In this document: positions 22,859 to 59,979 of the stretch, in pieces | How positions within the stretch are numbered: position 1 is the stretch's first letter | How the letters are laid out: each line of letters opens with the position of its first letter | Origin: Steroidobacteraceae bacterium | GTDB lineage: Bacteria > Pseudomonadota > Gammaproteobacteria > Steroidobacterales > Steroidobacteraceae | NCBI GenBank assembly: GCA_036498345.1 | Contig: DASYFQ010000018.1 | Location: forward strand, 29,842-93,841 | Direction: 5' to 3' | DNA: 64,000 nucleotides | The notes under the pieces: model-generated | Told to the model about the DNA's origin: nothing | The model's input: only the letters and a program-made list of their open reading frames with translations | Databases searched by the model: none | Made by a program: the position numbers and the translations under genes

Positions 22859-22892
22859 GACGGCCTCCGTGGCGACTCAAGGGAAGGAGCAA

Positions 22893-27063: not shown

Positions 27064-27140
27064 ATCACCTTCTTGAGCCCCAGACCGCCCGAGCAATCGG
27101 CTGCGGTGCGCTTCTTTCAAGCTTTTTGCGGAGACCTTTG

Positions 27141-31872: not shown

Positions 31873-32574
31873 GTGCAATATCTTCAGTTCATCATCGTGG
31901 CGGGCGCCGCATTTCTGGCTAACGTCGCCGGCGGTGTATTTGCCCGGCGCGTCGCCGACCGAACGCATCTCGCCCCGGGCTTCAGCGCGGGTACGGTCAT
32001 TGCGGTCGCTTTTTTCATTTTTCTGCCCCAAGCCGTTTTGATCAGCCCCGCGGCACGCGGCGCCGGCGAATTGCTGCCTCTGGTGGGCCTCGGATTCGTG
32101 ATGGCCCTGCTGCTGGATCGATTCGGAACTGTCTGGATGGACGGCAGTGAAGCTCATCTCACGGCGCGCAAACACTACGGTCATGCCGTCCTGAACGGAG
32201 CGGCGATCGGGCTGGCGTACCACGTATCCCCGGCGTTGAGCGCTGTCGTCACGGCGGCGTTGCTGGCCCATGAATTCTCGGACAGCGCCGCTGCCGCGAG
32301 ACAGGCATCGCGCGAGCCCTACGAGAGGCGGGCGCTGCGCGACAGTGTCATCAGTTCGCTGTGCGTGGCGGCCGGCCTTGCCGCAACCTGCATTCACGGC
32401 ATGCCGGCGGGAACGGTCAGTGTCGGGTTGGCGCTGTTCGGCGGATATTTCATTTACTTGAGCGCGAGCGATCTCATCCCCGAAAGCCATCATCTGCATC
32501 CGCAGCTGTTGACCGTCGTGCTGACGTTCGGCGGAGCGGCAGCGATGTACCTCGCGAGCGTGATCGTCAAATGA
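31873..32574 (+). CDS. ZIP family metal transporter
   Basis: Polytopic membrane protein with LLAHEFSDS and ASDLIPESHH motifs typical of ZIP/ZupT. GTG start. Confidence 0.75.
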   Translation: MQYLQFIIVAGAAFLANVAGGVFARRVADRTHLAPGFSAGTVIAVAFFIFLPQAVLISPAARGAGELLPLVGLGFVMALLLDRFGTVWMDGSEAHLTARKHYGHAVLNGAAIGLAYHVSPALSAVVTAALLAHEFSDSAAAARQASREPYERRALRDSVISSLCVAAGLAATCIHGMPAGTVSVGLALFGGYFIYLSASDLIPESHHLHPQLLTVVLTFGGAAAMYLASVIVK

Positions 32575-32607: not shown

Positions 32608-33123
32608 ATGTCAGTCATGAAATCAGCTGCAAGCCGCTTTGCGGACTCGCGCGGCAAGCACGATCACCAGCGCTGTGTATCCAAAGCGCTGCGCGTGGCC
32701 GATGAGGTGTGCACCGAGCGCGGCCTGAGATTGACCCCCACGCGCAAGCGCGTGCTGGAACTCATCTGGACGCGCCATGCGCCCATCGGCGCCTACGACA
32801 TCTTGGGTCAGTTGAGCAAGGAGGGCCGTCAAGACGCCCCGCCGACGGTGTACCGCGCGTTGAGCTTTCTGATGGGCGCGGGATTGATCCACCGTATCGA
32901 CACCCTGAACGCCTACTTGGGTTGCGAGACTCCGAAGCAACTGCACGCCGCGCAATTTCTCGTCTGCCGCTCCTGCCGCGCAGTGACGGAACTCGGTGAT
33001 CCGGCCATCGCCCGATTGCTGGCCCAACGGGTCAAAGCTGCGGGCTTTACCGCCGATGCACACGACTTGGAGATCAAGGGATTGTGCGACTCTTGCCGCG
33101 GCCGTACCGGGGCGGCCAGCTAG
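32608..33123 (+). CDS. zur: Fur family zinc uptake regulator
   Basis: Winged-helix LTPTRKRVLELIW...GAYDIL...VYRALSFLMGAGLIHRI plus CxxC pairs VCRSCRAV and GLCDSCRG. Sits in a zinc-uptake context. Confidence 0.8.
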   Translation: MSVMKSAASRFADSRGKHDHQRCVSKALRVADEVCTERGLRLTPTRKRVLELIWTRHAPIGAYDILGQLSKEGRQDAPPTVYRALSFLMGAGLIHRIDTLNAYLGCETPKQLHAAQFLVCRSCRAVTELGDPAIARLLAQRVKAAGFTADAHDLEIKGLCDSCRGRTGAAS

Positions 33124-34165: not shown

Positions 34166-34870
34166 ATGACCTCCCAGGCGATCGAACTCAACGAGGTACA
34201 TTTTGCATGGCCGCGCGGCGCGACCGTGTTGGCGATCCCCCGATTCGCCGTCGCCCGGGGTGAAAGTGTGTTCCTCAAAGGCGCGAGCGGCAGCGGCAAG
34301 AGCACTCTGTTGGGCCTCATCGGCGGGGTTCTGCAGCAAGCACGCGGGTCGATCCTGATTCTCGGCACCTCGATGCGTGACCTGCGCGGTTCCCGCAAGG
34401 ATGCGTTTCGCGCAGCGCATATCGGATTCATTTTTCAGATGTTCAACCTGCTGCCCTTTCTGTCGGTTCTCGACAATGTCACGCTGCCCGCGCGGTTTTC
34501 TCGGGCGCGCGCGGCGCGTGCCGGCGATGATCTCGGCGGTGAAGCCAGGCGGCTGTTGGCGGACTTGGGCTTGAGCGATCCGCAATTGCTGGCGCGTCCG
34601 GTAACGGAGCTGAGCATCGGGCAGCAGCAGCGGGTCGCCGCGGCCCGAGCCTTGCTGGGGCGCCCGGACCTTTTGATCGCGGACGAACCCACCTCAGCCC
34701 TGGATGCCGACACGCGCCTCGCGTTTATCGACATGCTCAAGCGCGAATGCGCCAGCGCCGGCACCACGCTCTTGTTCGTCAGTCACGACACCGCGCTCGC
34801 CCGCTCATTCGACCGCACGGTCAGCATGAGCGAAATCAACCGGGCCGAGAGCCATCACCCATGGCCCTGA
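34166..34870 (+). CDS. ABC transporter ATP-binding protein (ZrgB/MacB-LolD type)
   Basis: Walker A GASGSGKST, signature LSIGQQQRVAAARA, and Walker B LLIADEPTSALD. Confidence 0.9.
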   Translation: MTSQAIELNEVHFAWPRGATVLAIPRFAVARGESVFLKGASGSGKSTLLGLIGGVLQQARGSILILGTSMRDLRGSRKDAFRAAHIGFIFQMFNLLPFLSVLDNVTLPARFSRARAARAGDDLGGEARRLLADLGLSDPQLLARPVTELSIGQQQRVAAARALLGRPDLLIADEPTSALDADTRLAFIDMLKRECASAGTTLLFVSHDTALARSFDRTVSMSEINRAESHHPWP

Positions 34871-36123
34871 TCGTGCTCGCGCTGCGCAGCCTGTGGAACC
34901 GGCGCACCACCGCGGCGTTGACCATCAGCGCCATAGCCATCAGCGTCACGCTGCTGCTCAGCGTCGAGAATCTGCGCGCCGCCGCGCGCGACGGGTTCGC
35001 CAACACGCTCTCCGGCGCCGACCTGATCGTCGGAGCGCGCAGCGGGCCCATCAATCTGTTGCTGTATTCCGTGTTTCGCATCGGCGATGCCACCGCGAAT
35101 GTCACGTGGGAGTCCTATCAGAAGATTGCCAAACATCCCGATGTCGATTGGAGCATTCCGATTTCGCTCGGCGACTCGCATCGGGGCTTTCGCGTCATGG
35201 GAACCAGCCTCGACTATTTTGCCCACTACCGCTTCGCGGGCGATCAAACGCTGAAATTCGCGCAAGGGCGTGCCTGGTCCGATCTGTACGACGCCGTCCT
35301 GGGAGCCGATGTGGCGGCCCAGCTGCACTACCGGCTGGGAGATCCCATCGTGCTGGCTCACGGCATCGGCAGCGTGAGCTTCGCGCAGCACCGGGACAAG
35401 CCGTTTCGGGTGGCGGGTATTTTACGGCGCACCGGCACTCCGGTGGATCGGACCGTCCACGTCAGTCTGCAGGCCATCACCGCCATTCACCTGGACTGGC
35501 AGAGCGGCATGCAGGCGCCTCCCGGAGCGCGCGTCTCCGCGGAGGACGCGAGGCATCGGAATCTGACCCCGGATAGCGTCACCGCATTCATTCTGGGGAT
35601 GAAATCCAAAGTCATGGTCTTCGTCATGCAGCGTGCCATCAACGAGTATCGCGAAGAGCCGTTGCTCGCGATCATTCCGGGCGTCGCGCTTCAGCAGTTG
35701 TGGAGTCTGCTGGGGGTCGCCGATCAGGCGTTGATGCTCATCGCGGCCTTTGTCGTCCTCGCCGGCTTGCTCGGCATGCTCACCTCGATCTTGACCAGCT
35801 TGAACGAGCGGCGGCGCGAGATGGCGATTCTGCGCTCGGTGGGCGCGCCGCCGCGGGACATTTTTCTGTTGCTCATCCTCGAGGCGGGCGTGCTCGCGCT
35901 GCTCGGCGTATTATTCGGCACAGCACTGGCGTATTTGCTGCTCGCGATCGCACAGCCCGTACTGATCAACCGCTTTGGTATTTTTGTGCGCGTCAGCATG
36001 CTGCGTGGTAATGACGTGGTCATCCTCGCGGCCATCGTCATCGCGGCACTCGGCATCGGAGCGATTCCGGCCTGGCGGGCATATCGGCATTCCCTCGCCG
36101 ATGGCCTGACCGTCCGGGTCTAG
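34861..36123 (+). CDS. ABC transporter permease, FtsX-like (ZrgC type)
   Basis: MALIVLALRSLWNRRTTAALTISAIAISV start, a large periplasmic loop, and C-terminal FtsX TM helices. Overlaps the ATPase gene by 10 nt. Confidence 0.85.
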   Translation: MALIVLALRSLWNRRTTAALTISAIAISVTLLLSVENLRAAARDGFANTLSGADLIVGARSGPINLLLYSVFRIGDATANVTWESYQKIAKHPDVDWSIPISLGDSHRGFRVMGTSLDYFAHYRFAGDQTLKFAQGRAWSDLYDAVLGADVAAQLHYRLGDPIVLAHGIGSVSFAQHRDKPFRVAGILRRTGTPVDRTVHVSLQAITAIHLDWQSGMQAPPGARVSAEDARHRNLTPDSVTAFILGMKSKVMVFVMQRAINEYREEPLLAIIPGVALQQLWSLLGVADQALMLIAAFVVLAGLLGMLTSILTSLNERRREMAILRSVGAPPRDIFLLLILEAGVLALLGVLFGTALAYLLLAIAQPVLINRFGIFVRVSMLRGNDVVILAAIVIAALGIGAIPAWRAYRHSLADGLTVRV

Positions 36124-36159: not shown

Positions 36160-36693
36160 TTGGCCGCCGTGTTGGGACTGTCGCTGCTGGCAGGCAGCGC
36201 CGGCGCCTCCCCGCCCCGTGCCGGCGCGCCCGCGCCCAAGGGTTTCATGTTGCCGAACAACGTGTTGCAGGTCGATTGGGATGAACTCCTGCCGCCGGGC
36301 ACAGCGGATCATGCCGACACGTCGGCGCCGCCCCCGCAGCACGATTACTTGGGCGAATCCGCTCCGGCCGCGAAACAGACTGGCTCGTCTGCGGTCAATC
36401 CGGACCTGCACGGCCTGATGTTGCGCATCCCCGGATTCATCGTTCCGCTCGACCTCGATACCGCGGGCAGAGTGCTGGAATTTTTCCTGGTGCCTTATTA
36501 CGGCGCCTGCATTCATGTACCGCCGCCGCCGCCGAATCAAATCGTCTATGTGCGGGCGTCCAAACCCTTCCTCGTCAAAGACGGCACCGACGCCTACTGG
36601 ATTACCGGACAAATGCGCATCGAGCGCAAGCACACCGACCTGGCATCCGCCTCCTACTCCCTGGCCGCGAGTAAAATTGAACCATACCCATGA
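36160..36693 (+). CDS. DUF3299 domain protein (ZrgD-like), copy 1
   Basis: RIPGFIVPLDLD...EFFLVPYYGACIHVPPPPPNQIVYV signature. The only candidate start in the open frame is TTG at 36160, so the start is uncertain. Confidence 0.75.
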   Translation: MAAVLGLSLLAGSAGASPPRAGAPAPKGFMLPNNVLQVDWDELLPPGTADHADTSAPPPQHDYLGESAPAAKQTGSSAVNPDLHGLMLRIPGFIVPLDLDTAGRVLEFFLVPYYGACIHVPPPPPNQIVYVRASKPFLVKDGTDAYWITGQMRIERKHTDLASASYSLAASKIEPYP

Positions 36694-36730: not shown

Positions 36731-37486
36731 ATGCTGCTCCTAGCGCTGGCAGGCGCGGCGTTTTGCACCACCTGGACCGGCGGCTTGCTGGCGCTGCGCC
36801 TTGCCGCACGGATGCAATGGGTGCTCGGCTTCAGCGCCGGCGCCGTCGTCGCCGTGGCGTTCTTCGATCTCTTGCCCGAAGCGGTGGAGCTGGGGGCGCC
36901 TTCCTTTGGCGTAGCCAAGGTGTTCTCATGCGCCGCCGCGGGATTTCTCATCTATCTCTTGTTCGATCGCGTGCTTCTCTTCCAGGGCCAGCGCTATCGG
37001 GATGAGCTCGCCGCCCACCTCCCCGGCGCGCATGAGGGGGCGAACACCCGGCACCGCGCCACCTTGTTCGCGAGCAGCCTGTCGCTGCACAGCTTTCTCG
37101 ACGGCATCGCCATCGGCTTGGCATTCCAAGCATCGGCCGCCGTGGGCGCGGTGGTCGCGATCGCCGTGCTGACCCATGATTTCTCCGACGGCGTCAATAC
37201 CATGAACGTGGTGCTGCGAAACGACAATAATCGCCGCCGGGCGCTCCAGTGGCTGCTGGCCGATGCGGTGGCGCCGGGCCTGGGGATTTTCTCGACGCTG
37301 TTCTTTCGCATCCAGCCTGATGTCTTGGGAATAATTCTCGCGCTTTTTTCGGGTTTCTTTCTCTACATCGGCGCCAGCGATCTGATTCCCGAGAGTCACC
37401 GCGCCTTCCCGAAAGCGCTGACGACGTTCATGACCTTGCTCGGCATCGCCGTGTTGTATGTGGCCGTGACGCTCGCGCAAATATAG
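36731..37486 (+). CDS. ZIP family metal transporter, second copy
   Basis: VLTHDFSDGVNT and GASDLIPESH motifs. Polytopic. Confidence 0.8.
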   Translation: MLLLALAGAAFCTTWTGGLLALRLAARMQWVLGFSAGAVVAVAFFDLLPEAVELGAPSFGVAKVFSCAAAGFLIYLLFDRVLLFQGQRYRDELAAHLPGAHEGANTRHRATLFASSLSLHSFLDGIAIGLAFQASAAVGAVVAIAVLTHDFSDGVNTMNVVLRNDNNRRRALQWLLADAVAPGLGIFSTLFFRIQPDVLGIILALFSGFFLYIGASDLIPESHRAFPKALTTFMTLLGIAVLYVAVTLAQI

Positions 37487-37495
37487 ACGCAGGGG

Positions 37496-37861
37496 GTGTC
37501 GATGCAAATCGAGTTAAACCGCGAAGATCCGAGCCAGCAAGCGACTCTCGCGACGCTGCCGCGCTTCAATGCTGCCGAAATCAATCGGCGGCGCTTGCTG
37601 GCGCTGATGCTGGCGTCAGGTGCCCTGGCAGCCGCCTTGCTTGCAGCGGCCGCCGCGTCGAATTCCGCCATTGCGCGTTCGCTGCTCAGCTTCAATGGCG
37701 CCGCCCTGCTGCTGCTGTGCGCAGGCTTGCAGTCGGCTTATGGACTCCTCGGCGCCGAAGGCGCGCTGATCGCCGCGCTGCTGCACAATCTGAGCACCCT
37801 GCTCGTGCTCGGCAACGCAGGGCGGCTGCTGCGATTTCAGGAATTGCTGCCGCGGCTGTGA
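37496..37861 (+). CDS. small membrane protein resembling the last two TM helices of a P1B-type ATPase
   Basis: 121 aa with two hydrophobic segments. The C-terminus ALLHNLSTLLVLGNAGRLLRF resembles the terminal helix and NALRLLR tail of heavy-metal P-type ATPases. Confidence 0.4.
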   Translation: MSMQIELNREDPSQQATLATLPRFNAAEINRRRLLALMLASGALAAALLAAAAASNSAIARSLLSFNGAALLLLCAGLQSAYGLLGAEGALIAALLHNLSTLLVLGNAGRLLRFQELLPRL

Positions 37862-37866
37862 TACAC

Positions 37867-38397
37867 GTGCACATCAGCTGGATCGTTGCCTTGTCCCTCT
37901 GGACCGGCGTCGCGGGCGCATCGTCGATGCCCGGCGACAAACCGCAGGAGAGCGCGAAGCCGCCCAACGTTCTGCAGGTTGATTGGGAAAAGCTCCTGCC
38001 GCCCCACGCAGCCAAGCCGATCAACGAACCGCCGGCGCCGGTGCATGGCTATCTGGGTGAATCGGGGCCTGCCGCGAAACAGAGCGGCTCGTCAGCGGTC
38101 AATGCGGAACTCGAGGGCCTCACCTTGCGCATACCCGGGTTCATCGTTCCGCTCGACGTGGATGCGGCGGGGCAAGTCGTGGAATTCCTGCTCGTGCCTT
38201 ATTACGGCGCCTGCATCCACGTACCGCCGCCGCCGCCCAATCAGATCATCTACGTCAAACCGGCGAAGCCGATCCCGGTCAAGGACTTGTTCAATGCGTA
38301 CTGGGTGACCGGACGCATGCACGTCGAGATCCGCAATACGCAGATGGCATCCGCGTCCTACACGATGAATGCCAGCAACGTAGAGGACTACCAATGA
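37867..38397 (+). CDS. DUF3299 domain protein (ZrgD-like), copy 2
   Basis: GTG start at 37867 (MHISWIVALSLWTGVAGA signal). RIPGFIVPLDVD...EFLLVPYYGACIHVPPPPPNQIIYV. About two-thirds identical to copy 1 by eye. Confidence 0.75.
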   Translation: MHISWIVALSLWTGVAGASSMPGDKPQESAKPPNVLQVDWEKLLPPHAAKPINEPPAPVHGYLGESGPAAKQSGSSAVNAELEGLTLRIPGFIVPLDVDAAGQVVEFLLVPYYGACIHVPPPPPNQIIYVKPAKPIPVKDLFNAYWVTGRMHVEIRNTQMASASYTMNASNVEDYQ

Positions 38398-42375: not shown

Positions 42376-42822
42376 CTATTCCAGGCAAACGACCAGCTTG
42401 GCGGAGTGGGTGCGCCAATTGATGGGAATCACGTAGGAGCGGTTATGCGGCGCCGTGACCTTATCCACTTCGTGCGCGATGACCACCGGCACGGATATGA
42501 CGAAATTCTTGCCGAAGTCGCGGCGCGCATTGCCGGAAATCGTGTTCGCCACTTCGCCGACGAGATCCTTGATGTTTTCGTCGCTGGTGTCGGTTTCCTG
42601 CATGCGCATCAGCAGCACGGTGAGCATGCCGCGCGGAGCGGTGAAATAGACGATGCCCTTGCGTGCGCCGGAAATGCCGATGACGCCCGTATATTCATAG
42701 GCGCCGGGGTTTCCGTCCGTCACGAGATAGGGCGACCCGACCGTCGCCGACTGCTGCGCCGAAATCTCGAAATAGTTCGTCGCGCCTTCGATGAATGTGC
42801 GTATCTCGGCTTCCTTGATCAT
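42376..42822 (-). CDS. CheX-like CheY-P phosphatase
   Basis: 148 aa. GVIGISGARKGIVYFTAP and VGEVANTISGNARRDFG resemble CheX/CheC-family proteins. Overlaps the CheY-like gene by 4 nt. Confidence 0.65.
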   Translation of the reverse strand: MIKEAEIRTFIEGATNYFEISAQQSATVGSPYLVTDGNPGAYEYTGVIGISGARKGIVYFTAPRGMLTVLLMRMQETDTSDENIKDLVGEVANTISGNARRDFGKNFVISVPVVIAHEVDKVTAPHNRSYVIPINWRTHSAKLVVCLE

Positions 42823-43217
42823 CCTGCCTCCGACAGCAGCTCTTCGAGCGCGTCATTGAGCTGACGATCCGTGAACGGCTTGCATAGAAAGCCGTTCGCT
42901 CCTTTTTCGATGGCATCCACCGCGGTGGCCTTGTCCGCGAGAGCGGAGACGACCAGGATCAGCACCTTGGAATTGATCGCCACCAATTTCTGCACGCATT
43001 CGACGCCGTCCATCTCGGGCATGGTCAGATCCATGGTCACGACGTCCGGTTGCGTGCGGCGGAACAGTTCCACTGCCTCGCGGCCGTTGCTCGCGGCGCC
43101 CACCACTTCCAATCGGGCGATCTGCTGGGAGCGCTCGATGCGCCGGCGAATGATGTTGGAATCATCGACGATCATGAGCCTCAACGAAGGCTTTGCCTCG
43201 GCATTCATATTCGTCAC
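42819..43217 (-). CDS. single-domain response regulator (CheY-like)
   Basis: MIVDDS acidic pocket, acceptor Asp in VVTMDLTMPEMDG, LVVSA, and FLCKPF. Confidence 0.85.
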   Translation of the reverse strand: MTNMNAEAKPSLRLMIVDDSNIIRRRIERSQQIARLEVVGAASNGREAVELFRRTQPDVVTMDLTMPEMDGVECVQKLVAINSKVLILVVSALADKATAVDAIEKGANGFLCKPFTDRQLNDALEELLSEAG

Positions 43218-45421
43218 GCCGCCTCGGTGTCATCCGCGCGCTTGACGGCGGCGCGCGGCAGCGTCATGGTCAGCCGCGTAAACTTTCCCGAACTCGTCGC
43301 AACCGAAACCCGCCCCCCCGCCTGATTGGTCAGGTCGGCGATCACGTTCATGCCGACGCCCCGTCCCGCATCTTTGGTCGCGGTCTCCATGGTGGAGAAG
43401 CCGGGCTGGAACAACAGCGAGAAGATCTGCTTGGTATCCAAGGTCTGCGCCTTTTCGGGAGTGATGAAGCCTTTTTTGAGCGCGGCTTCCTTGATGCGCT
43501 CGGTCGACAGGCCTTGGCCATCGTCTTCGACGATGAGCTTGTAGCCCGAGTCGCCCGTAGTCTGGAAGGTCAGGCGCACCGAGCCTTGCCGGGCCTTCCC
43601 GGCGGTCTCGCGGCCGTCGGGCGGCTCTATGCCGTGCACGATGGCGTTGCGCACCGCCTGAATGCCGATGTCCTTGACGGTGCGCCGATACTCGTCGGGC
43701 ACGGCGTCGAACCCGATGCACTGCACAGTGGCTTCCTTGTTGTTTTCGCGGGCGACGCGCGCGGCGAGCTGTTGCAGCGTCGCCTCGACGCCGGCATCGC
43801 CCTTGGCGCCCGACAGCTTCTGCTTCTCCTCTTGCAGCACCGCGGTAATGGTGTGGACGACGTCGTGCTGCCCGACGTGCAGGCGCGACAGGCGCGAAAC
43901 CAAGTCGCTGACGGATTGCAGGTGCGTGAGCAGATCATCGAGCTTGATGACCAGCGGCAGGAAGTCGTTCCCCGACAGGCTTGGCTTCTCCCGCAGCGAC
44001 TTCAAGTCATCTTCGAAGGCATGCGCGCGGGTCTCGATGGAGGACAAGCCCAACGCGGCGGCTTCCCCCTTGACCGAGTGCACTTGCCGGAACAGGGTAT
44101 CGAGCTTCTTGCGGAACACGCCCTCTTCGCGAGTCGGCTCGCGCAGCACCGCGTTGATCATCTTCATGGCGGCATTCGAGTCGTTCAAGAACGACGAGAG
44201 CTGCGCAGGATCGATGTGCAGAATACCCAGTAAGGTGTCCACTTGGCCCTGCGCTTGGTTCTGCGAGGCTTGCAGCTCATGCGCGAGATCCACCCGGGCG
44301 GTCACGTCCGACACGGACACCAACACCTGGGTCATCTCGCCGTCGACCCGCACTCGGTGAAAGTCGAACTGCAGGTAGCGCGTGTCGAACTTGCCGTTGC
44401 CGCTGTCCAGGTGGACTTCCACCTCGCCCAGGGGATTGATCGTTTTGACCAGCTTCTCGTTGGTGCGCTCGGACCAGAGGATTTTGACGAATTTGGTCGC
44501 GGTCGCGAGCGTCCGCTCCGATACGATGTTCTTGAGCAGGTTCTCGAAAGGAAGACCGGCGAAGTCCTTGCGCTGGAACAGCGTCTCCAACGCGCCTGAA
44601 TAGGCCGCGCCGATCACCAGGTTCTGGTCGAGCAGGAACAATCCGTCTTTGACCGTGCGCAGGATGTCCGTGGTCTGCTGCCGCGCTTGACGCAGGCTGC
44701 TTTCCTGCCGCTGCCGGGCGCTGAGCAATACGGTCACCAGCGTCACCAGGGCGAGGGCGATCACGAGACCCGACAGCATCACCAGCCGCAACTCGGTCGC
44801 AGAGCGCAAATTGGTCGCCTGCAAGTCTGCCGCAATCGCCGAGAATTCGTTGTCGAGCGCCGGCAAGGCATGCCGGCTGGTGCGCAGCGCCGCGTTGACG
44901 TCGAGTTCCAAGCGGCGTCCGCTGTCGTTCAAATTGGTGCCGGTGGATTCGTTGTCCTGGTAGGGAACGCCGTGGTAATCGAGCAGCGGTTTCAACACCA
45001 CCAGCTCCCTGGCCCAGCTATCGAGCAGCGAGGCGGCGTGCTTGCCGGCAATCGGCGCGCCGGTTGCGCCGGTGTCGGCCGTGAGTGCGAACCAGCTCAC
45101 GGGGCGCGGCACCGTCATCTGATGCAACGCCGCGTCGAGTTTGGCGCTCGACGCACGCAAATCGTCCAGAGATTCTTGCACATAGCCGTGGGCGCCCAAG
45201 CGGTCATGCACGGCTTCGAGCGACGCGCGAATGAGGGTTGGATGACGCTGTTGCTCACCCAGCAACTTGAGCGCCGTCGAACTGTCCGCGACTTCGCCGG
45301 CAAGTTCGAGCCCCGGTATGAGCACGATGGCGAGAAAGGCGAATCCCAGCATGACGACCAGCACGAGCAGGCCGCCCGGCGACAGGAGCGGACTCAAGAT
45401 CTTACTTAACCGAGACTTCAT
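43214..45421 (-). CDS. membrane-anchored CheA-type histidine kinase (2 TM sensor, Hpt, catalytic domain; no CheW-like domain)
   Basis: Two TM segments flank a periplasmic region of about 200 aa. Hpt motif FRQVHSVKGEAAALG. CheA-type ATPase boxes RNAIVHGIE, DDGQGL, GFST and GRGVGMNV. The protein ends right after the kinase domain. Confidence 0.8.
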   Translation of the reverse strand: MKSRLSKILSPLLSPGGLLVLVVMLGFAFLAIVLIPGLELAGEVADSSTALKLLGEQQRHPTLIRASLEAVHDRLGAHGYVQESLDDLRASSAKLDAALHQMTVPRPVSWFALTADTGATGAPIAGKHAASLLDSWARELVVLKPLLDYHGVPYQDNESTGTNLNDSGRRLELDVNAALRTSRHALPALDNEFSAIAADLQATNLRSATELRLVMLSGLVIALALVTLVTVLLSARQRQESSLRQARQQTTDILRTVKDGLFLLDQNLVIGAAYSGALETLFQRKDFAGLPFENLLKNIVSERTLATATKFVKILWSERTNEKLVKTINPLGEVEVHLDSGNGKFDTRYLQFDFHRVRVDGEMTQVLVSVSDVTARVDLAHELQASQNQAQGQVDTLLGILHIDPAQLSSFLNDSNAAMKMINAVLREPTREEGVFRKKLDTLFRQVHSVKGEAAALGLSSIETRAHAFEDDLKSLREKPSLSGNDFLPLVIKLDDLLTHLQSVSDLVSRLSRLHVGQHDVVHTITAVLQEEKQKLSGAKGDAGVEATLQQLAARVARENNKEATVQCIGFDAVPDEYRRTVKDIGIQAVRNAIVHGIEPPDGRETAGKARQGSVRLTFQTTGDSGYKLIVEDDGQGLSTERIKEAALKKGFITPEKAQTLDTKQIFSLLFQPGFSTMETATKDAGRGVGMNVIADLTNQAGGRVSVATSSGKFTRLTMTLPRAAVKRADDTEAA

Positions 45422-46757
45422 GAATTATCACTCCCGTATGACTGGCTCCACTGACGGACGTTCGAATAGGCGCACTGACCGCGCTCAAATCCTCGAGAAA
45501 CGAAGCGGCCGAGGCGTAACGATCGGCGGGGTCTTTAGCCAATAAACGATCGATGATCGGCTGGTAGCGCAGGACGCGCTGGGGCAACCGCGGCACCGGC
45601 GCCGCACGATGACCGGTGAAGATCTCGACCAGATTATTGCCGACGTACGGCAAGGCGCCCACCAGCATTTCGTAGAGCACGATGCCGAGACTGTAGAGAT
45701 CGCCTCGCGCATCCGGATCGCGGTTGTCGATCTGCTCCGGGCACACGTAGTAAGGGGTTCCCGTGCACAGGTCGGATCTCGATAGATCGCTCGCCGCTAG
45801 GCGCACGGATGCCGACCCGAAATCGATCAAGATCAGGCGGTTGTCGTCGGTCAACATCAAATTCGACGGCTTCAAGTCGCGGTGCACGACGTGCGCAGCA
45901 TGCAGCACCTGGAGCGCCTCGCCGATTTGGCGCGCGTAATTCACCGCATCGGCCTCGCTCACCGGATTCTTCAGACGATCGCGCAGACTCCCGCAGGGGA
46001 AATATTCCAGCGCGAGATACAGATAGTCATCGGTGATGCCATAGTCGAGCACGTCGGCAATCGAGCGATGATTCAGCGCCGACAGAATTTGGCATTCGCG
46101 CACGAACCGCTGCCGATCGGCCTCGGACACTTCGCGGCCTTTGAGCGCATGAACCTTGAGCGCGACGGGCTGTGCCAAATCGTCGTTGCGCGCCAGATAG
46201 ACGGACGCCGCAGCCGATTCCGCAATGGTCTTCACCAGACGGTATCCGGCGATCTGCGGCTGGCGCCGGGGATCGGCTGGCGCGCCGGCCGGGGAGCCGG
46301 AACTGCGCGCCGGCTCCACGAGCGGCTGCAAGACCTCGCCCAATTCGCCGATTTTCACCGAGTGAATCGGCCAATAGTCGTTGGCTCCCAGTTTGATGGT
46401 GCGCGCGGCGTTGCGTTCGTCGCCGCCGCGCGCAAATACGAATATGGGCAAGCGCGGCGCTTGGCCGCGCGTACGCGCGAGCCGCACCAGCGGGTCAACC
46501 GCGTTGTCGCGCGGGCCGAACTCGACGATGAGAAACAAGGCCACGTAGCCGGCGACGCGATCCGGGGTGAGCGCATCGAAGCTTGCGCTGCTGATGCAAT
46601 CTGCGTCGAGAGTCGCAACCGCCCGGCGCACCAGCGACGCGAGCCGCAGGCGGAGCTCGAGGTCATCGTGCACGACCAGGCAGCGACCGGCCGAACGTTT
46701 GGCTCCGGCAATGCTCGACTCGCGTCGATCGGTGCTTACGGAGGGTTTGCTGCTCAT
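45402..46757 (-). CDS. receiver-domain / Hanks-type Ser/Thr protein kinase fusion
   Basis: N-terminal REC-like region (LVVHDD..., KLGANDYWP). The kinase domain has VALKV, HRDLKPSNLML, DFG and YVCPEQ. Confidence 0.85.
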   Translation of the reverse strand: MSSKPSVSTDRRESSIAGAKRSAGRCLVVHDDLELRLRLASLVRRAVATLDADCISSASFDALTPDRVAGYVALFLIVEFGPRDNAVDPLVRLARTRGQAPRLPIFVFARGGDERNAARTIKLGANDYWPIHSVKIGELGEVLQPLVEPARSSGSPAGAPADPRRQPQIAGYRLVKTIAESAAASVYLARNDDLAQPVALKVHALKGREVSEADRQRFVRECQILSALNHRSIADVLDYGITDDYLYLALEYFPCGSLRDRLKNPVSEADAVNYARQIGEALQVLHAAHVVHRDLKPSNLMLTDDNRLILIDFGSASVRLAASDLSRSDLCTGTPYYVCPEQIDNRDPDARGDLYSLGIVLYEMLVGALPYVGNNLVEIFTGHRAAPVPRLPQRVLRYQPIIDRLLAKDPADRYASAASFLEDLSAVSAPIRTSVSGASHTGVIIHEVSVK

Positions 46758-46770
46758 GAGGCGTCAGTTG

Positions 46771-48843
46771 CTATTTCGACAGGCGAAAGGCGATGCGCAA
46801 TTTCGTGCTGACCGCGATGGCTTTTCCACCCTGCGTCATCGGCTGGTAGCGCATGCGCGTGAGCGCCTTGGTCGCGGCCGCGTCGAACATACCCGGCGGG
46901 CTCGAACCCAGCACCTTGACCGTAGCGACCTTGCCTTCCGCCGTGACCATGTAGGAAACGTCGACCCAACCCTCGATGCTCCGGCGCAGCGCCTCGCTCG
47001 GGTAGTCGAGTTCAATCCCTTTGACCCGGGTCAATGAGGCTTCCAGGACTTGCGGCGGCCCGGCGCTGGCCAGTTTCAACTGCGCCAGGCGCTGGTTGAG
47101 CGCAGCCAAATCGGCCGAGGCGCCCAAGCCCGCAGCCATCTGCAACAGCGCTTCGGCTCTGGCGGGTTGTGTGGTATCGAGCGCAGCACGGGCTTGATCG
47201 AGGATTTGCCCCTGAACGGCGCCGGATATTCGTGCCAGGCCGCTATTCTTGGGATCCGTGGCACGCAGCTGATTGACATAAAACAGCGCACTGTCGTTGT
47301 CGGGCTCGGTGAGTTTTCCTTGGGCGAGCCGGGATTGCGCCAGATCGAGGTATTGCGGCTGTTCGGGTGCGGCCGCGGCTTGCTGCGCGCGCGCCGTATT
47401 GAGTTCGTGTTGCAGGTTCGCGACGGTTGCGGCCGGAGCGCCGTAGGTGTGCAGGTCCGCGAGCAACCGATCCGCGTCGGTGAAACGCCGCTGCTCGACG
47501 GCGGTGCGCTCGGACTGTGCCAGCCGTTTGTATATTTCCTGGGACTGCGACTGCAGCGCGGCGATGCTTGCACCGGCAGCCCTGGCCTGCGCGAGGTAGT
47601 AGGCGGCGCTGTCGTTGCGCGGTTCCACCACTTTGTCCTGCTGCAAGCGCGTGTCGATCAGCTTCGCAAAATTCGCGATGTCGGATTCTTGGTGCCGCCG
47701 CCGCAGTTCGTCGCGCAACTGCGTGAGTTTCGCATTGCTGAGAGATTTGGTGCGGGCCGCCTCGTCGATCAGTTGCGTCGCGCGATCGAAATTCTGTGCG
47801 TTGATAGTCGCCAGAATCTGCGCCGGGCCGAACTCGGCCCGCAAGCTGGCGATGCGCTCATCGAGCGTGGACAAGCGACCATCGGCGGGATTGATGCTGC
47901 GTGCGGTTTCGAGCGCCTGCAACGCAACGTCGAACTTGCGTTCGTCCAACGCGGACTGCGCCCGCGTGAACAGAATTTCGGCGAGGCGCTGCAAACCCTG
48001 GCGCGCTTCGCCGTTGTTGGGATCGATAAGAAGCGCATTTCTATAGAGCGTCAGCGCGCTGCCGTCGGCCGGATCGATGAAGTGCCGATCGAGCATCGCC
48101 TTCCCGGCTTTCTCGATCAGCAGATCGATCTTTTCGTCGGCTGCCGCCGGTGCTTTGCCGGGCGGTTGCGCGGCGTGCTCCGAGTTCGCCGCGGGCTCGG
48201 GTTTGACCGGCGCATCGTGCCGGAGGACGACGAACACCCCGGCGGCGGCGGCGAGCACGCCCGCAATGATGGATACGGGGATCCATGGAATTCTTCGTTG
48301 ACCGGATGGTGCGGCGGGCGACCCCGCGCCGGCCGATTCCGTGGCGGGTGATCCCGCGCCCGGGGCCGCGGTGCTGCCGTCGCCGAGCAGCGCCACTCGC
48401 GCGTTGACCTCCTCGTGGGCGCTATCGAGGGCGGCCGTCAAATTTGCGGCCGCTATCGGCAGCGCCACATGAGCTACGACCTGGCGCAGGGCGATGGGGT
48501 TCGCCCACGTATGAGCCCCGCTCGCCTCGTCCAGCGCAATCACTGCAAAACGAGGGGAATGCAGCTGCAGGCGGGACAGTGCGCCGGCGGTCTCGGTTTG
48601 ATTTCGCGCATCCCACAAGACGATGGCCGGTTGGCCCGAGGTCGTCGCCGTGAGCAACTCATCGATGGAGTCCACCTGCTTGAGGATGAGGTCGCTCCCC
48701 ACATGCGGCCCGATCTGCGGCCACAGCATGTCGTCGCCTGTGATGAGGAGCACCGAGAGCTTGGCTTTTTTCGCCGCGGGTCCGGGCGTACGCCGAGCGA
48801 GTTCCGACGCGGCGGATTCACTTTTTCTTGTTGCGCTTTGCAC
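46771..48843 (-). CDS. receiver-like / TM / helical-repeat / TonB C-terminal domain protein
   Basis: Domain order: cytoplasmic REC-like region (VLLITGDD, IVLWDARN, AVIALDE), a low-complexity linker, one TM (IPVSIIAGVLAAAAGVFVVL), about 380 aa of TPR-like repeats, then a TonB-C domain (LDYPSEALRRSIEGWVDVSYMVTAEGKV...RYQP). Confidence 0.75.
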   Translation of the reverse strand: MQSATRKSESAASELARRTPGPAAKKAKLSVLLITGDDMLWPQIGPHVGSDLILKQVDSIDELLTATTSGQPAIVLWDARNQTETAGALSRLQLHSPRFAVIALDEASGAHTWANPIALRQVVAHVALPIAAANLTAALDSAHEEVNARVALLGDGSTAAPGAGSPATESAGAGSPAAPSGQRRIPWIPVSIIAGVLAAAAGVFVVLRHDAPVKPEPAANSEHAAQPPGKAPAAADEKIDLLIEKAGKAMLDRHFIDPADGSALTLYRNALLIDPNNGEARQGLQRLAEILFTRAQSALDERKFDVALQALETARSINPADGRLSTLDERIASLRAEFGPAQILATINAQNFDRATQLIDEAARTKSLSNAKLTQLRDELRRRHQESDIANFAKLIDTRLQQDKVVEPRNDSAAYYLAQARAAGASIAALQSQSQEIYKRLAQSERTAVEQRRFTDADRLLADLHTYGAPAATVANLQHELNTARAQQAAAAPEQPQYLDLAQSRLAQGKLTEPDNDSALFYVNQLRATDPKNSGLARISGAVQGQILDQARAALDTTQPARAEALLQMAAGLGASADLAALNQRLAQLKLASAGPPQVLEASLTRVKGIELDYPSEALRRSIEGWVDVSYMVTAEGKVATVKVLGSSPPGMFDAAATKALTRMRYQPMTQGGKAIAVSTKLRIAFRLSK

Positions 48844-51290: not shown

Positions 51291-52355
51291 TCAGCTCACC
51301 CGCGACCGGTATGGCTCACCCCGCTTCCCAGCCGATTCGTCTGTGCTCCCCGGGCGCGCAAACGACAGGCAAACGGTCCGCGAGCGCACCATGCCGCGCG
51401 CGGCGCTGCCTCGAAGGTGAGGAACGCGCCAGAAGATGCGGTTGTCGCGCCGCACGAGATGACCTCGGACATGATGCAGCCGCGGCGATAGGCGGCCGAC
51501 CGGTTCGAATCCGCCGGAATCTGCTTCCCGGACCGAGTCGAGCGAGGCGCGCACCTCGATGTGATCGAGCAGCGGTGCTCGGCCATGCGCCTGACGTTTG
51601 CGATTGATGGCGGCACGCGACACCGGAATCCGGCGGGTGGCGTCTTTGGCGCTGAGCAACAGCAGAAACGCGAGAACCAGCGGCGGATCGCGAGCGACCG
51701 CCGCCAACGACGAGCGCACTACATCGCGCTGCGCGCCGGGATCAGTTGCGGCGGCACGATAGTAGGCTGCCCAGGTTGCGTCGAAGCGAAACCGCACGTG
51801 GTCGAGCAAACAATCCATCGCAGCATCGTCTCGTTGGCCAATGCCGGCGAAGCCGCCCGACAGGATGGCCGCAACATCCGACGCGTCCGCGAACTCAGCG
51901 CGCAAATCGATGTGAGTTTCGAGCGGCGACAGAGTCACTTCCGAACATGCGTCGGCGGCGTCGGCCCAAAAAGTCCGGGTCACGGCGCCGTAGCCGTCCG
52001 GTGACCCCTCCAGCAGCACTCCGACTCGGCGGCCCGACGAGGCCGTGTCGTAGTCGGCGGCCGACCCGGTCTCGTAGATTACGCGCTTGTGCACTTCATC
52101 GTTCCACTCGATCCACATTTGCCGCGCCGGCACTCGCAGCAGATCCAGACATCCCACCAGGCGCGCGCCGTCCGCGAACGCGAGCTCCGCGCACGCCTGC
52201 GTTAGATCATCGGCAAGAACGAAGCGCAACGGACAGTCGGCGACGCGCGATGCGTAGCGGCCGGGACCGGTGACCTGGAACGCAACCTCCGGACGATGGT
52301 GGGGGGCCAACAGGAGTGGCGCGCGAGTGCTGGCAACTCGGTCGAGTAGTCGCAT
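51291..52355 (-). CDS. hypothetical protein
   Basis: Start moved to MRLLDRV (52355) because the longer ORF overlaps the upstream gene. Has a basic C-terminal stretch LHHVRGHLVRRDNRIFWRVPHLRG. No family recognised. Confidence 0.4.
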   Translation of the reverse strand: MRLLDRVASTRAPLLLAPHHRPEVAFQVTGPGRYASRVADCPLRFVLADDLTQACAELAFADGARLVGCLDLLRVPARQMWIEWNDEVHKRVIYETGSAADYDTASSGRRVGVLLEGSPDGYGAVTRTFWADAADACSEVTLSPLETHIDLRAEFADASDVAAILSGGFAGIGQRDDAAMDCLLDHVRFRFDATWAAYYRAAATDPGAQRDVVRSSLAAVARDPPLVLAFLLLLSAKDATRRIPVSRAAINRKRQAHGRAPLLDHIEVRASLDSVREADSGGFEPVGRLSPRLHHVRGHLVRRDNRIFWRVPHLRGSAARGMVRSRTVCLSFARPGSTDESAGKRGEPYRSRVS

Positions 52356-52474
52356 CGGGGGACAACCTCGTGGAACGCAGCTCTGCCGACGCGTCCATGA
52401 GACTCTGCGGGCACCATCTGCGTCTGCGGCTTCGCGTCGAATTCGTCCCCGCCAACAGCGGCTTCGTCCCCGGC

Positions 52475-53146
52475 TTAAGGCGGCGGGATCGGAAACGCCA
52501 GAACATTCTCCGTATAGGTTTCGACCACTTCGCTGAACGGCGTCCCATCGGGCAAGGTCAGCACCGCCCGATGCTCCAACAGTTTGGATGGCATGGGTTG
52601 ATCCGCAACCACGTTGCGCGCGCCCGCCGCATTCATTTCCCAGCCGGCGGGCAGCGGAAGCCATAGCAGCGTCGCCGACAGAGTGTGGCGTTGGAAGTGG
52701 AGCGCCCGCACGACCACACCGAAAGGAGTGTCGGTGGTGTCCAGCAGCTTGTTCATCTCGGGCGTCAAGCGGCCAGGCACATACCAATTGTCCGCCTCGG
52801 ACAGCACGAACGCGCCGCACATCAATTTCACCCGCCGGTAGCGGACGGGCTCTTCCGGTGTGACCCCCAGCTCCCGGCGCTGGTCGAGCGTCGGCTGCTT
52901 GTCGATATTCGGAATCCGCGACGCGACGATCTTCGGAGGCGACGCCAATTTGTGCACGTCGCACCAACGCTCGAGCGTCAAGGTCGCGCTGTCATGGCTC
53001 AGCAAATCGGCGTTCAATGTCTGCAGCACCGCGAGTGCCTCGACCCGTGCGACGAAGCTGCCCGTCCAGTTCGGCGTTTGCGCCGCCGGCGCCGCACCGC
53101 ATAGGAATGTGCCCACCATAAGAAACCCCGGCAGTGATGATCGCAT
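52475..53146 (-). CDS. hypothetical secreted protein
   Basis: Signal peptide MRSSLPGFLMVGTFLCGAAPAAQ. No confident family. Any resemblance to a UbiC/DUF98-type fold is only an impression. Confidence 0.45.
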   Translation of the reverse strand: MRSSLPGFLMVGTFLCGAAPAAQTPNWTGSFVARVEALAVLQTLNADLLSHDSATLTLERWCDVHKLASPPKIVASRIPNIDKQPTLDQRRELGVTPEEPVRYRRVKLMCGAFVLSEADNWYVPGRLTPEMNKLLDTTDTPFGVVVRALHFQRHTLSATLLWLPLPAGWEMNAAGARNVVADQPMPSKLLEHRAVLTLPDGTPFSEVVETYTENVLAFPIPPP

Positions 53147-58574: not shown

Positions 58575-59249
58575 TCAGCGGCAGCAACGGGCTTCCAGGG
58601 CCTTGCGATTGACGATGCGGAAATGCCGAGTGCCGAAGAAGGTGATCACTTGCCCGGACCGCAGCGTCGTCAAGGAGCGGCTCACGGTTTCCACTGCAAT
58701 CGCGAGGTAGTCCGCGATGTCGTAGCGGGACATCGGCAACGCGACCATTCCCTCCGTCTTGGTTTGGCGCCGGTCGGCCATCTCCAGCAGGAATCCGCAT
58801 ACTCGCTCTAGTGCTCGGCTACAGCCCAACAGGATCGTTCTCGACTGCATTCGATCCATCGAGTCGAACGCGATTTCGCGCACGCGGCGCGCGAGTTGCG
58901 GATCCGACTCCAGGAGTGATTCCATCCGCGGACGCTGATAACGCACGACCATGGTGTTTGGCACCACACACTCGACGGAGCAGTCGTGCCCGGCGCCTGC
59001 GTGGAATCCGAAAAAGTCTCCGGGAAGCAAGAAATCCACGATCTGACGCCGGCCGTCCGACATTTGGGTGCATTGTCGAGCGGCTCCGGCGACCAGCTCG
59101 TACCAATAATCGGCCGCTTCTTCTCGGCAATAAACATTCTCGTCGGCGCTATACCTCCGCAAGGTACCGAGCGATTCCATCGCATTCGGCGGGCGGCTGT
59201 TCGCCGGGGTTTCCGGCATGCCGTTAGCGCCTACGATCGCAAGTTGCAT
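58575..59249 (-). CDS. Crp/Fnr family transcriptional regulator
   Basis: cNMP-binding-type beta-roll (RRQIVDFLLPGDFFGF) and C-terminal HTH MSRYDIADYLAIAVETVSRSLTTL. Start is uncertain (59249 or 59288). Confidence 0.8.
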   Translation of the reverse strand: MQLAIVGANGMPETPANSRPPNAMESLGTLRRYSADENVYCREEAADYWYELVAGAARQCTQMSDGRRQIVDFLLPGDFFGFHAGAGHDCSVECVVPNTMVVRYQRPRMESLLESDPQLARRVREIAFDSMDRMQSRTILLGCSRALERVCGFLLEMADRRQTKTEGMVALPMSRYDIADYLAIAVETVSRSLTTLRSGQVITFFGTRHFRIVNRKALEARCCR

Positions 59250-59367
59250 GCCATTTCTCTCCGTGGTCCGTCGTTTACCCGGACGCACGAACTTAGAGGG
59301 ATCCGCGCCTGCTGAACACCCTACTTTGGTTTAGTATTGGTGCGGAGAACATGCACCAAGGTATAGA

Positions 59368-59979
59368 TCAGGCGAGCTTCTCTATCATCCGCACGAGTTC
59401 CGCAAGCGAAGACGCTTGCATTTTCTCCATGATGTGCCGGCGGTGCAGCTTGACAGTGATCTCGGTGACGCCGAGGTTTGCCGCAACTTGCTTATTGAGC
59501 AATCCCTGCACGACTCCGGACGCCACCGCACTTTCCCGCGGCGTCAGGCTGGCGTAGCGTGCGCGCACCGCGGCGAGATCGGCGCGTTGCCGGCGCGCGG
59601 CGCGATCTTTGTCGATAGCCTGAGTGACGGCATCCAATAGATCCTGTTCGCGAAGCGGCTTTATGAGAAACTCGACGGCGCCGGCTTTCATGGCGCTCAC
59701 GGTCATGGGGATGTCGGCGTGCCCGCTGATGAAAATAATGGGGATATACACGCCGGCGCGGCCGAGTTCGCGCTGTAAATCCAGGCCGCTCTGCCCCGGA
59801 AGGCGGACGTCCAGCACCAAACACGTCGGTACATCCGGAAGCGCGGCATTGAGGAATTCAGCCGCGGATGTAAACGGCCGTGCCTCCAAGCCGACGGAGC
59901 GAATCAACGTGCACAGTGAGTCTCGGATCGACATGTCATCGTCCACGATGAACACGACGCTTCTCGCCTCGTGCATCAC
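59368..59979 (-). CDS. FixJ/LuxR-type response regulator
   Basis: REC domain ([29 protein letters not shown]) plus LuxR HTH (LTPRESAV...[19 protein letters not shown]). Confidence 0.9.

Follow-up and report, generated by a model that had tools for sequence, protein, structure and literature searches.

A CheA-type kinase with its own sensor, CheY and CheX, encoded beside a TonB-like protein and a Ser/Thr kinase in Steroidobacteraceae

Layout of the locus and anatomy of the kinase, CheY and CheX

The 64,000-nucleotide stretch of Steroidobacteraceae DNA analysed here (the window; GenBank assembly GCA_036498345.1, contig DASYFQ010000018.1, positions 29,842 to 93,841) carries an operon of five genes, named A to E, that lie in one tight row on the minus strand. 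Gene A encodes a protein with a receiver-like domain, a single transmembrane (TM) segment, a region resembling tetratricopeptide repeats (TPR) and a TonB C-terminal domain; gene B encodes an aspartate-less receiver joined to a Ser/Thr kinase; and genes C, D and E encode a membrane-bound CheA-type kinase, a CheY and a CheX. The set has grown, within one lineage, from a widespread kinase-CheY-CheX trio by the addition first of A and then of B. In the open reading frame (ORF) list of the window, A and B are separated by 13 nt, B overlaps C by 20 nt, and C/D and D/E share overlaps of 4 nt (GTGA and ATGA, respectively); the five genes are presumably co-transcribed. A first-pass annotation, made from the letters of the DNA, had given the five genes and the four junctions at exactly these coordinates. 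Its domain calls (TonB_C, Pkinase, Hpt, HATPase_c, CheY and CheX) are backed by Pfam and NCBIfam, while the TPR match in A is weak.

The kinase C, which is identical to HEY4442898.1 from a metagenome-assembled genome of Steroidobacteraceae, joins CheA-type catalytic parts to a sensor of its own. A hydropathy scan places its two TM segments within residues 7-45 and 208-237, on either side of a periplasmic domain. The cytoplasmic part begins with a divergent PAS-like domain, for which PAS_4 gives a match in 8 of 36 family members (best E 2e-4) and a PDB sequence search gives none. The Hpt (P1) domain has weak matches to CheA P1 structures; across 22 diverse homologues (29-71% identity), its His448, Lys451 and Gly452 vary little or not at all, and the N and G boxes, together with His448, are invariant in 22 diverse kinases. 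The ATP-binding P4 domain matches the P4 structure of Thermotoga maritima CheA (1i58) with an E value of 1.2e-26 over residues 554-722, and the NCBIfam model CheA_Halo covers only this part of the protein. The motifs read in C by the first-pass annotation (HSVKGE, RNAIVHGIE and DDGQG) are all present, as are the two TM segments, and its description of C as a CheA-type kinase that stops without P5 is borne out: within residues 400-735 neither P3 (H-kinase_dim) nor P5 (CheW) gives a match, even at E<=10. Hpt and P4 are separated by only about 35-45 residues of poor conservation, and the protein ends 11 residues past P4.

The same architecture recurs across the family. In a full HMMER scan, 1.84 billion cluster representatives were searched with C, and 1,393 clusters matched at E<1e-30. 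In the top 150 of these 1,393 representatives, the full-length proteins mostly have about 650-870 residues, the rest being short fragments; the full-length matches cover C from its N-terminus, or from near residue 200, up to where P4 ends, and none extends beyond P4 into a P5 domain. The same search also returned, from outside the window, a protein of 4858 residues (P0154) with 32 separate stretches matching C and a CheA-type P4 at its end, which is probably a giant multi-Hpt ChpA-like protein.

Every CheA surveyed by Berry, Andrianova and Zhulin has P1, P3, P4 and P5, and these authors stress that CheA has no sensor domain (PMC10782961). Judged by its motifs and domains, C would thus work like a CheA in its P1-P4 chemistry, yet it falls outside the CheA family as so defined. 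Compared with the canonical systems built from CheA, CheW and methyl-accepting chemotaxis proteins (MCP; classes F1-F17, ACF and Tfp), the operon shares CheA-type P1 (H-S-V-K-G) and P4 domains, a single-domain CheY as acceptor and a phosphatase of the CheC/CheX family. Unlike those systems, C lacks P2, P3 and P5, has no MCP or CheW gene nearby, and carries its own two-TM periplasmic sensor and PAS-like domain. The family breaks the usual description of CheA as a sensor-less kinase that always needs P3 and P5 (PMC10782961).

The protein encoded by gene D is the sole canonical receiver of the operon. Its catalytic set consists of Asp18, Asp19, Asp63, Ser91 and Lys113, and all five residues are kept in 66 of 66 family members. 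CheX, the product of gene E, carries the D-x3-E-x2-N motif (as DLVGEVAN), which is present in 76 of 77 family members; against the NCBIfam equivalog CheX_Thtogales it scores 27.6, far under the cut-off of 280. It resembles the CheX proteins of spirochaetes and Thermotoga in its Pfam CheX domain, its motif and its place beside cheY, and differs from them in that it would serve a receptor-less pathway. The coordinates of all five genes and of their parts are collected in Table 1.

Table 1. Genes of the operon and the parts of their products (positions in the window; AF2, AlphaFold2; aa, amino acids)
Feature	Residues	Positions	Strand	Basis and remarks
Gene A	1-690	46771-48843	minus	ORF, 690 aa; GTG start, AAGGAGG ahead of start
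A, receiver-like cytoplasmic domain	29-153	48385-48759	minus	degenerate; hhalign, AF2, Foldseek
A, single TM segment IPWIPVSIIAGVLAAAAGVFVVLRH	185-209	48217-48291	minus	hydropathy scan
A, all-helical TPR-like periplasmic region	233-593	47065-48147	minus	AF2, Foldseek, TPR_2 E 4e-5
A, TonB C-terminal domain with YP motif	612-688	46780-47010	minus	Pfam TonB_C E 3e-19, NCBIfam, Foldseek
Gene B	1-451	45402-46757	minus	ORF, 451 aa
B, pseudo-receiver domain	24-146	46320-46688	minus	AF2, Foldseek, hhalign
B, Ser/Thr kinase domain	173-415	45513-46241	minus	Pfam Pkinase E 5e-46
Gene C	1-735	43214-45421	minus	ORF, 735 aa; TM1, periplasmic domain, TM2, PAS-like, Hpt (P1), CheA-type P4; without P2, P3, P5
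C, periplasmic sensor domain	about 46-207 (~160 aa)	44801-45286	minus	TM scan
C, divergent PAS-like cytoplasmic domain	236-400	44222-44716	minus	conserved throughout the kinase family (alignment)
C, Hpt/P1	409-502	43916-44197	minus	Pfam Hpt E 5e-8
C, codon of phospho-acceptor His448	448	44078-44080	minus	HSVKGE, residues 448-453
C, ATP-binding P4, CheA-type	550-724	43250-43774	minus	HATPase_c, residues 588-724
Gene D, canonical single-domain CheY	1-132	42819-43217	minus	ORF, 132 aa; Response_reg E 4e-27
Gene E, CheX phosphatase	1-148	42376-42822	minus	ORF, 148 aa; Pfam CheX E 1e-19

Distribution of the trio and its layered synteny

Related loci were collected by scanning one genome per species with the N-box pattern RN[AS][VI][VA]HGIE, which returned at least 599 stretches (from at least about 590 species genomes). 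Eighty loci were inspected and annotated by phmmer with the domains of the window, and all locus counts given here refer to them. A kinase of the family is present in 78 of the inspected loci. CheY and CheX lie directly beside it in at least 70 of these 78, nearly always in the order kinase-CheY-CheX; the exceptions to this adjacency are mostly contig ends or ORF-calling artefacts, and the spirochaete loci have the order CheY-CheX-kinase. The hosts span at least seven phylum- or class-level groups, among them Gamma- and Betaproteobacteria, Acidobacteriota, Bacteroidota, Verrucomicrobiota and spirochaetes. On the gammaproteobacterial side they comprise Steroidobacteraceae, Lysobacterales, Cellvibrio, Psychrobacter, Moraxella and Cardiobacteriaceae; the others include Neisseria, Kingella, Comamonadaceae, Rhodocyclaceae, Thermoanaerobaculia, Cyclobacteriaceae, Verrucomicrobiales, Treponema and Leptospiraceae.

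Unlike the canonical chemosensory systems, the trio is also found in non-motile bacteria, namely Psychrobacter, Moraxella, Neisseria and Kingella. In Psychrobacter, cheY and cheX had been reported from 16 genomes without any other che or flagellar gene, and were left unexplained there (PMC4754876). The trio would account for these puzzling orphan genes in the non-motile Psychrobacter, Moraxella and Kingella. A full-text search of the literature, with subscription journals mostly outside its coverage, turned up no study that characterises either the trio or the five-gene operon. All constituent domain families and the logic of two-component signalling are known; the trio itself is apparently unstudied.

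It is extremely unlikely that C, D and E take part in ordinary chemotaxis or chemosensory signalling, with MCP, CheW, CheR and CheB encoded elsewhere in the genome. The JGI and NCBI pipelines do label the kinase 'chemotaxis sensor kinase CheA', and CheY and CheX are chemotaxis-family proteins. However, C lacks both P3 and P5, the domain that binds CheW and receptors, and these are core domains in every surveyed CheA (PMC10782961); it has a TM sensor of its own, and the trio is found in non-flagellated genera without other che genes. Because the receptor-coupling domain is absent and the trio occurs in non-flagellated genera, we conclude that it is not a chemotaxis system, in agreement with the independence from MCP and CheW that had been proposed from the window. 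The proposal had noted the absence of MCP, CheW, CheB and CheR genes from the window, and a Pfam scan found none among 45 window ORFs (about 15 ORFs, all shorter than 145 residues, fell outside the scan).

Outside Steroidobacteraceae, the recurrent neighbours of the trio are of a different kind. About 19 loci, belonging to Moraxellaceae, Kingella, Comamonadaceae and Bacteroidota, have an SBP_bac_3 or PBP_like_2 gene directly beside the trio. Psychrobacter (10 loci) and Moraxella carry a gene for an SBP_bac_3 lipoprotein that ends 13-83 nt ahead of the kinase gene; SBP_bac_3 genes come after CheX in Cyclobacteriaceae and in three loci of Kingella; and Imperialibacter, Caenimonas and Polaromonas encode a PstS-like PBP_like_2 protein next to the trio. 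The recurrent accessory of the trio in these lineages is thus a periplasmic binding protein, which by analogy would act as an input-side partner.

Genes of about 260-290 residues downstream of CheX in other taxa were also considered as output effectors and rejected: those of Kingella and Cyclobacteriaceae encode solute-binding proteins, and that of Psychrobacter encodes ribosomal protein S2. Some of the loci have features of their own. Two tandem CheX genes follow CheY in ten Psychrobacter and Moraxella loci. In four Bacteroidota loci (Cyclobacteriaceae and Ekhidna) the family kinase has about 870 residues and an extra CheY gene lies upstream; two of these four (L060 and L065) also encode a canonical-looking CheA and further receivers a few kb off, and there the trio may form part of a larger chemosensory cluster. 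In three Comamonadaceae loci the gene just upstream of the kinase encodes an ABC-transporter ATPase (E 5e-36 in L055), which suggests that the trio has been appended to a transport operon.

Genes A and B have much narrower distributions. Gene A lies beside the trio only in Steroidobacteraceae-like loci (n = 17), upstream of the kinase in 15 of them and downstream of CheX in the remaining two (L010 and L011, order C-D-E-A), and the identity of the kinase in A-bearing loci goes down to about 35%. Gene B is confined to L001-L005, L012 and the frameshifted L077 (6 + 1), where the identity of the kinase is at least 50%; one of these loci, L005, has the order B-A-C-D-E. The periplasmic domain of C gives phmmer matches only in L001-L016, L019, L062 and L077, which are loci that also carry A. 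The flanks of the block differ from locus to locus: a peptidase gene and a DHOR gene in L001 take the place of the oxidoreductase and amidohydrolase genes of the window, and the flanks of the 17 loci contain 132 Pfam families, each in at most three loci. The first-pass annotation had treated the five genes as a unit. This is right in that they form a tight, conserved block between varying flanks, but the block is not one invention: the complete set is found only in fairly close relatives, with the kinase identity noted for B, whereas the trio is widespread.

With these flanks in view, we regard it as very improbable that A, B or both are functionally unrelated genes that came to lie next to the CheA-like/CheY/CheX cluster by chance. 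The confinement of the full set to one subclade would fit such an accident, these genomes commonly contain TonB-family and Ser/Thr kinase genes, and in several other phyla unrelated Ser/Thr kinases are encoded a few kb away from the trio. Yet the adjacency of A and B persists while all other flanking genes change, the junctions range only between the 20-nt overlap and the 13-nt gap, and the genes have been reordered in L005, L010 and L011 and still remain with the block; moreover, A and B both have receiver-fold domains, which are natural docking partners of an Hpt domain. We therefore take A to belong to the system, since it is adjacent in 17 loci despite their otherwise unrelated flanks, its junctions are tight and the periplasmic type of C is found only together with A. 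A PLSDB megablast search with the operon as query returned zero matches, and so the block is not a known mobile cassette. The possibility that an outer-membrane receptor dedicated to the block is encoded alongside it was considered as well and rejected, since no flank family recurs and the 17 loci contain neither a TonB-dependent receptor nor ExbBD.

Two accessory proteins with receiver-like domains

The AF2 model of A (mean predicted local distance difference test score, pLDDT, 68) consists of four parts: a (beta-alpha)5-like domain at residues 31-153, a TM helix, a helical region of about 360 residues and a C-terminal domain. The C-terminal domain is a bona fide TonB C-terminal domain. Foldseek aligns it with the Pseudomonas aeruginosa TonB of the FoxA complex (6i97_D) at a TM-score of 0.86 and 32% identity; the best eight Foldseek matches to TonB C-terminal domains have identities of 28-34% and TM-scores of 0.61-0.86, and Tyr614-Pro615 of the YP motif is invariant. 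The periplasmic helices, modelled with pLDDT values of 70-86, match TPR superhelices in Foldseek and include three copies of the motif L-x-E-P-x-x-D-S-A-x-x-Y. In the model, this TPR-like solenoid takes the position of the proline-rich spacer.

Escherichia coli TonB has an SxxxH motif in its N-terminal TM helix, through which it couples to ExbB/ExbD. The TM segment of A (IPWIPVSIIAGVLAAAAGVFVVL) contains neither SxxxH nor any histidine, and ExbB and ExbD do not recur in the flanks of the 17 A-bearing loci. Because the TM segment lacks SxxxH, the proline-rich rod is replaced and exbBD genes do not recur nearby, A does not qualify as an ordinary working TonB. TonB-dependent uptake, which had been put forward as a process to assay, is accordingly not an obvious output, given the missing SxxxH and ExbBD neighbours. 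That TonB paralogues can serve cell organisation and not uptake is shown by TonB3 of P. aeruginosa (PMC5285504). The likeness between A and TonB or TonB3 lies in the C-terminal domain, with its structure, sequence and YP motif. In contrast to both, A has no SxxxH motif, proline-rich spacer or nearby ExbB/ExbD or Poc genes, and it adds a cytoplasmic receiver-like domain of about 125 residues and the TPR-like solenoid of about 360 residues.

The N-terminal domain of A aligns with the CheY profile in hhalign (P 6.7e-5), with Asp78 falling on the phospho-acceptor Asp, and Foldseek relates it to the receiver-like structure 3kcn (TM-score 0.59). Asp37/Asp38 and Asp78 are present, the Thr site is occupied by Asp105 and the Lys site by Leu128. 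Asp37 and Asp78 are kept in 18 of 18 sequences. The deep-branching homologues of L010 and L011 alone keep Thr and Lys-Pro as well, and for these Response_reg is the top Pfam match, below threshold; a PDB sequence search with the N-terminus of A itself gave no match. Taken together, these residues suggest that A descends from a true receiver and that in the lineage of the window the domain is partly degenerate, with the Asp retained. Degenerate receivers that retain this Asp can possibly be phosphorylated, though inefficiently (Bourret-lab review, PMC12632262).

In B, residues 24-146 form a clean (beta-alpha)5 fold in the AF2 model (pLDDT 70-85), similar to PhoP (2pkx_A, TM-score 0.66) and PmrA (7m0s_B, TM-score 0.67); the kinase domain is modelled with pLDDT below 50, and our interpretation of the model is limited to the N-terminal domain. 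When the N-terminus was searched alone, Response_reg was not matched at the Pfam threshold, and the PDB sequence search gave a weak match to CpxR only. Against the CheY profile the domain scores P 3.2e-5 over 119 columns in hhalign, with Glu79 on the phospho-Asp. The receiver sites are His30-Asp31-Asp32, Glu79 at the phospho-site, Ala109 for Thr and His132 for Lys. Glu79 is invariant in 34 of 34 close homologues, and Asp is found at this site only in the most divergent homologue, that of L012. On this evidence the domain is an aspartate-less receiver, which would be unable to take a phosphoryl group in the usual way because Glu79, Ala109 and His132 replace Asp, Thr and Lys.

The kinase domain of B retains VALK201, the alpha-C Glu221, HRDLKPSN292-299, DFG312-314 and CPE339-341, all conserved in seven aligned homologues. 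Its Gly-rich loop is free of glycine (IAESAAASV), with AESAAA lying opposite GGGGMS of Staphylococcus aureus Stk1 (9ymt, E 1.5e-37), and the loop lacks glycine in all seven aligned homologues. A parallel is known from fungi, where the receiver of Rim15p has Glu in Ascomycota while other fungi have true receivers (PMC12632262; PMC4395418). B resembles Rim15p and other aspartate-less receivers in its receiver fold, its Glu at the phospho-site, its fused Ser/Thr kinase and the existence of a deep-branching homologue with Asp. It differs in being bacterial, in having the receiver at the N-terminus and below the PF00072 threshold, in the additional loss of Thr and Lys, and in being encoded in an operon with an Hpt-bearing kinase. 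The operon of Steroidobacteraceae thus offers two natural experiments in receiver decay, an Asp-to-Glu change on a Ser/Thr kinase and an Asp-retaining, Lys-less domain on a TonB-like protein.

The first-pass annotation had called the N-termini of A and B REC-like and had counted them, with CheY, as three candidate receivers for one CheA-type donor. The receiver fold is supported by hhalign, AF2 and Foldseek, but both domains are degenerate and fall below the Pfam Response_reg threshold. Nor are the three equivalent: the acceptor Asp is present in D (Asp63) and in A (Asp78), Glu79 stands in its place in B, and A has lost Thr and Lys. A relay in which CheY and the N-terminal domains of A and B are fed in parallel by C, so that the Ser/Thr kinase and the TonB-like protein are switched directly, is therefore improbable. 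It draws some support from the presence of three receiver-fold domains and one Hpt donor in the same operon, and from the Asp of the L012 homologue of B, by which the arrangement may be ancestral; the invariant Glu79, Ala109 and His132 of B in its 34 close homologues, the lost residues of A and the Pfam scores of both domains speak against it.

A proposed pathway and the surroundings of the operon

The core of the pathway that we infer from the domains and catalytic residues is probable. C would take up its signal through its own periplasmic domain, its PAS-like domain or both, with no need for chemoreceptors. Its P4 domain would phosphorylate His448 in the fused Hpt/P1 domain, the phosphoryl group would pass from His448 to Asp63 of D, and CheX would remove it from D and so reset the receiver. 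P5 would be dispensable in C because the sensor is fused in cis, and P3 because dimerisation can be maintained by the TM and PAS part. HisKA kinases have a phosphatase activity that CheA-type kinases are not known to share, which would explain why a dedicated CheX is needed and always accompanies the kinase.

For A, we tentatively favour the role of an envelope-spanning partner of C that acts chiefly on the input side. A would be a TonB paralogue recruited in Steroidobacteraceae, in which the ExbBD-coupling end has given way to a degenerate receiver and the proline-rich rod to a TPR solenoid. Its TonB C-terminal domain would read an outer-membrane partner (a TonB-box-type strand) or possibly peptidoglycan, the TPR part would contact the periplasmic domain of C, and the receiver-like domain, with its Asp78 kept, would couple back to the Hpt domain of C by weak feedback phosphorylation or by docking. 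The input side is favoured for A because other lineages place periplasmic binding proteins beside the trio. In the lineages with such binding proteins the trio lacks A, and CheY alone must suffice there as output.

In some sensor kinases, such as LuxQ with LuxP and TorS with TorT, a periplasmic binding protein serves as co-sensor. The trio resembles this type in the SBP_bac_3 or PBP_like_2 gene beside it in about 19 loci, a place that is taken in the window by the largely periplasmic A. Unlike LuxP and TorT, A is anchored in the membrane, has a cytoplasmic receiver-like domain together with TPR and TonB C-terminal parts, and has no Venus-flytrap fold.

B would have been added in the subclade of the window as a Ser/Thr kinase that is recruited or controlled through its aspartate-less receiver, without switching by phosphotransfer, and it would give the pathway a slower branch of Ser/Thr phosphorylation acting on presumed substrates. 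As a whole, a receptor-independent two-component pathway with A as input-side partner and B as recruited kinase is the best explanation that we can offer, although we put it forward with less than even confidence.

The direction of signalling through A could also be the reverse. A may be a membrane-spanning response regulator, in which case C would phosphorylate Asp78, directly or in competition with CheY, and would thereby alter the periplasmic TPR and TonB C-terminal parts in an 'inside-out' manner, so as to tether, release or gate an outer-membrane protein or a contact with peptidoglycan, with CheY and CheX as a phosphate sink that sets the timing. We consider this main rival possible, if rather unlikely. 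A receiver followed by a TM segment and an effector is standard response-regulator logic; Asp78 and Asp37 are invariant although the rest of the domain is weakly conserved; the homologues of L010 and L011, with Asp, Thr and Lys-Pro all kept, look like working receivers; the C-terminal domain is a bona fide TonB domain with its YP motif; and the PocAB-TonB3 system is a precedent for a TonB paralogue in a non-transport role (PMC5285504). On the other hand, the trio works without A in most lineages, where CheY cannot be merely a sink; A in the lineage of the window lacks Thr and Lys, which are normal phosphoryl-binding residues (PMC12632262); and the other recurrent accessory genes encode binding proteins of the input type.

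Several observations weigh against the pathway with A on the input side and B as a recruited kinase. A receiver at the N-terminus is the classic layout of response regulators, with the remaining domains as output, and this favours A as an output protein. The N-terminus of A alone gives no Response_reg match at the Pfam threshold, only FleQ with an E value of 0.047, and the model has only moderate confidence in this domain (pLDDT 57-75). Beside the block in the 17 loci, neither a TonB-dependent receptor nor another obvious outer-membrane partner is conserved. All loci in which A occurs with the periplasmic domain type of C come from one family, and this association is therefore confounded by phylogeny. 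The activity of B as a kinase is uncertain in view of its glycine-free Gly-rich loop. Finally, a promoter and terminator scan found no sigma-70-like promoter, and terminator-like sites were no commoner than in shuffled sequences, a result that is uninformative on operon structure.

A broader proposal would make the trio a distinct and widespread class of 'sensor-fused CheA' that drives non-flagellar envelope or surface behaviour through CheY, with the A of Steroidobacteraceae as a phosphorylation-controlled, TonB-like transducer with a periplasmic effector. We regard this combination as unlikely. If it is true that A is a transducer controlled by phosphorylation, it would represent an inside-out two-component output of a kind not described so far. 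A also hints at a direct wire between two-component signalling, or a phosphorelay, and the outer membrane. Searches with A, B and C each gave at least 120 clusters at 90% identity, and because carriers are this abundant in soil metagenomes, the system is ecologically common.

The rest of the window contains genes of varied function. No RNA feature was found anywhere in it by Rfam at gathering thresholds or by ARAGORN. Two neighbouring TPR-plus-sulfotransferase proteins (501 and 775 residues, the larger with a SEC-C motif) are encoded on the minus strand at 4389-8252, adjoining a TonB-dependent receptor of 1009 residues at 883-3912. On the plus strand at 9440-11073, a gene for a peptide-modification enzyme of the MbnB/TglH/ChrH family (ribosomally synthesised and post-translationally modified peptides; E 1e-114) is followed directly by one for a DUF2063 protein, a pair typical of methanobactin-like or DUF692-type peptide-modification clusters. 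At 21352-23486 on the minus strand, a MobA/MobL relaxase gene (E 3e-55) adjoins a short ORF with TrwB/TraG coupling-protein and TrbC fragments, which has the appearance of a conjugative or mobilisable element that has decayed within the chromosome.

The segment 27126-38397 is probably a zinc-uptake island. It contains genes for a TonB-dependent receptor (27126-29315), two ZIP-family transporters (31873-32574 and 36731-37486), a Fur-family regulator (32608-33123), a MacB/FtsX-type permease (34747-36123) and two DUF3299 proteins (36160-36693 and 37717-38397). Two long ORFs, of 602 residues at 12465-14273 (plus strand) and of 558 residues at 51291-52967 (minus strand), have no Pfam match at E<=1e-5; the latter has a third-position GC of 0.64, below that of its neighbours, and may not be a real gene. 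A second signalling cluster lies at 58575-63609 and comprises a Crp-family regulator, a LuxR-type response regulator (59368-59979), a GAF-HisKA kinase (59976-61799) and an MscS-like channel with a cNMP-binding domain (61942-63609).

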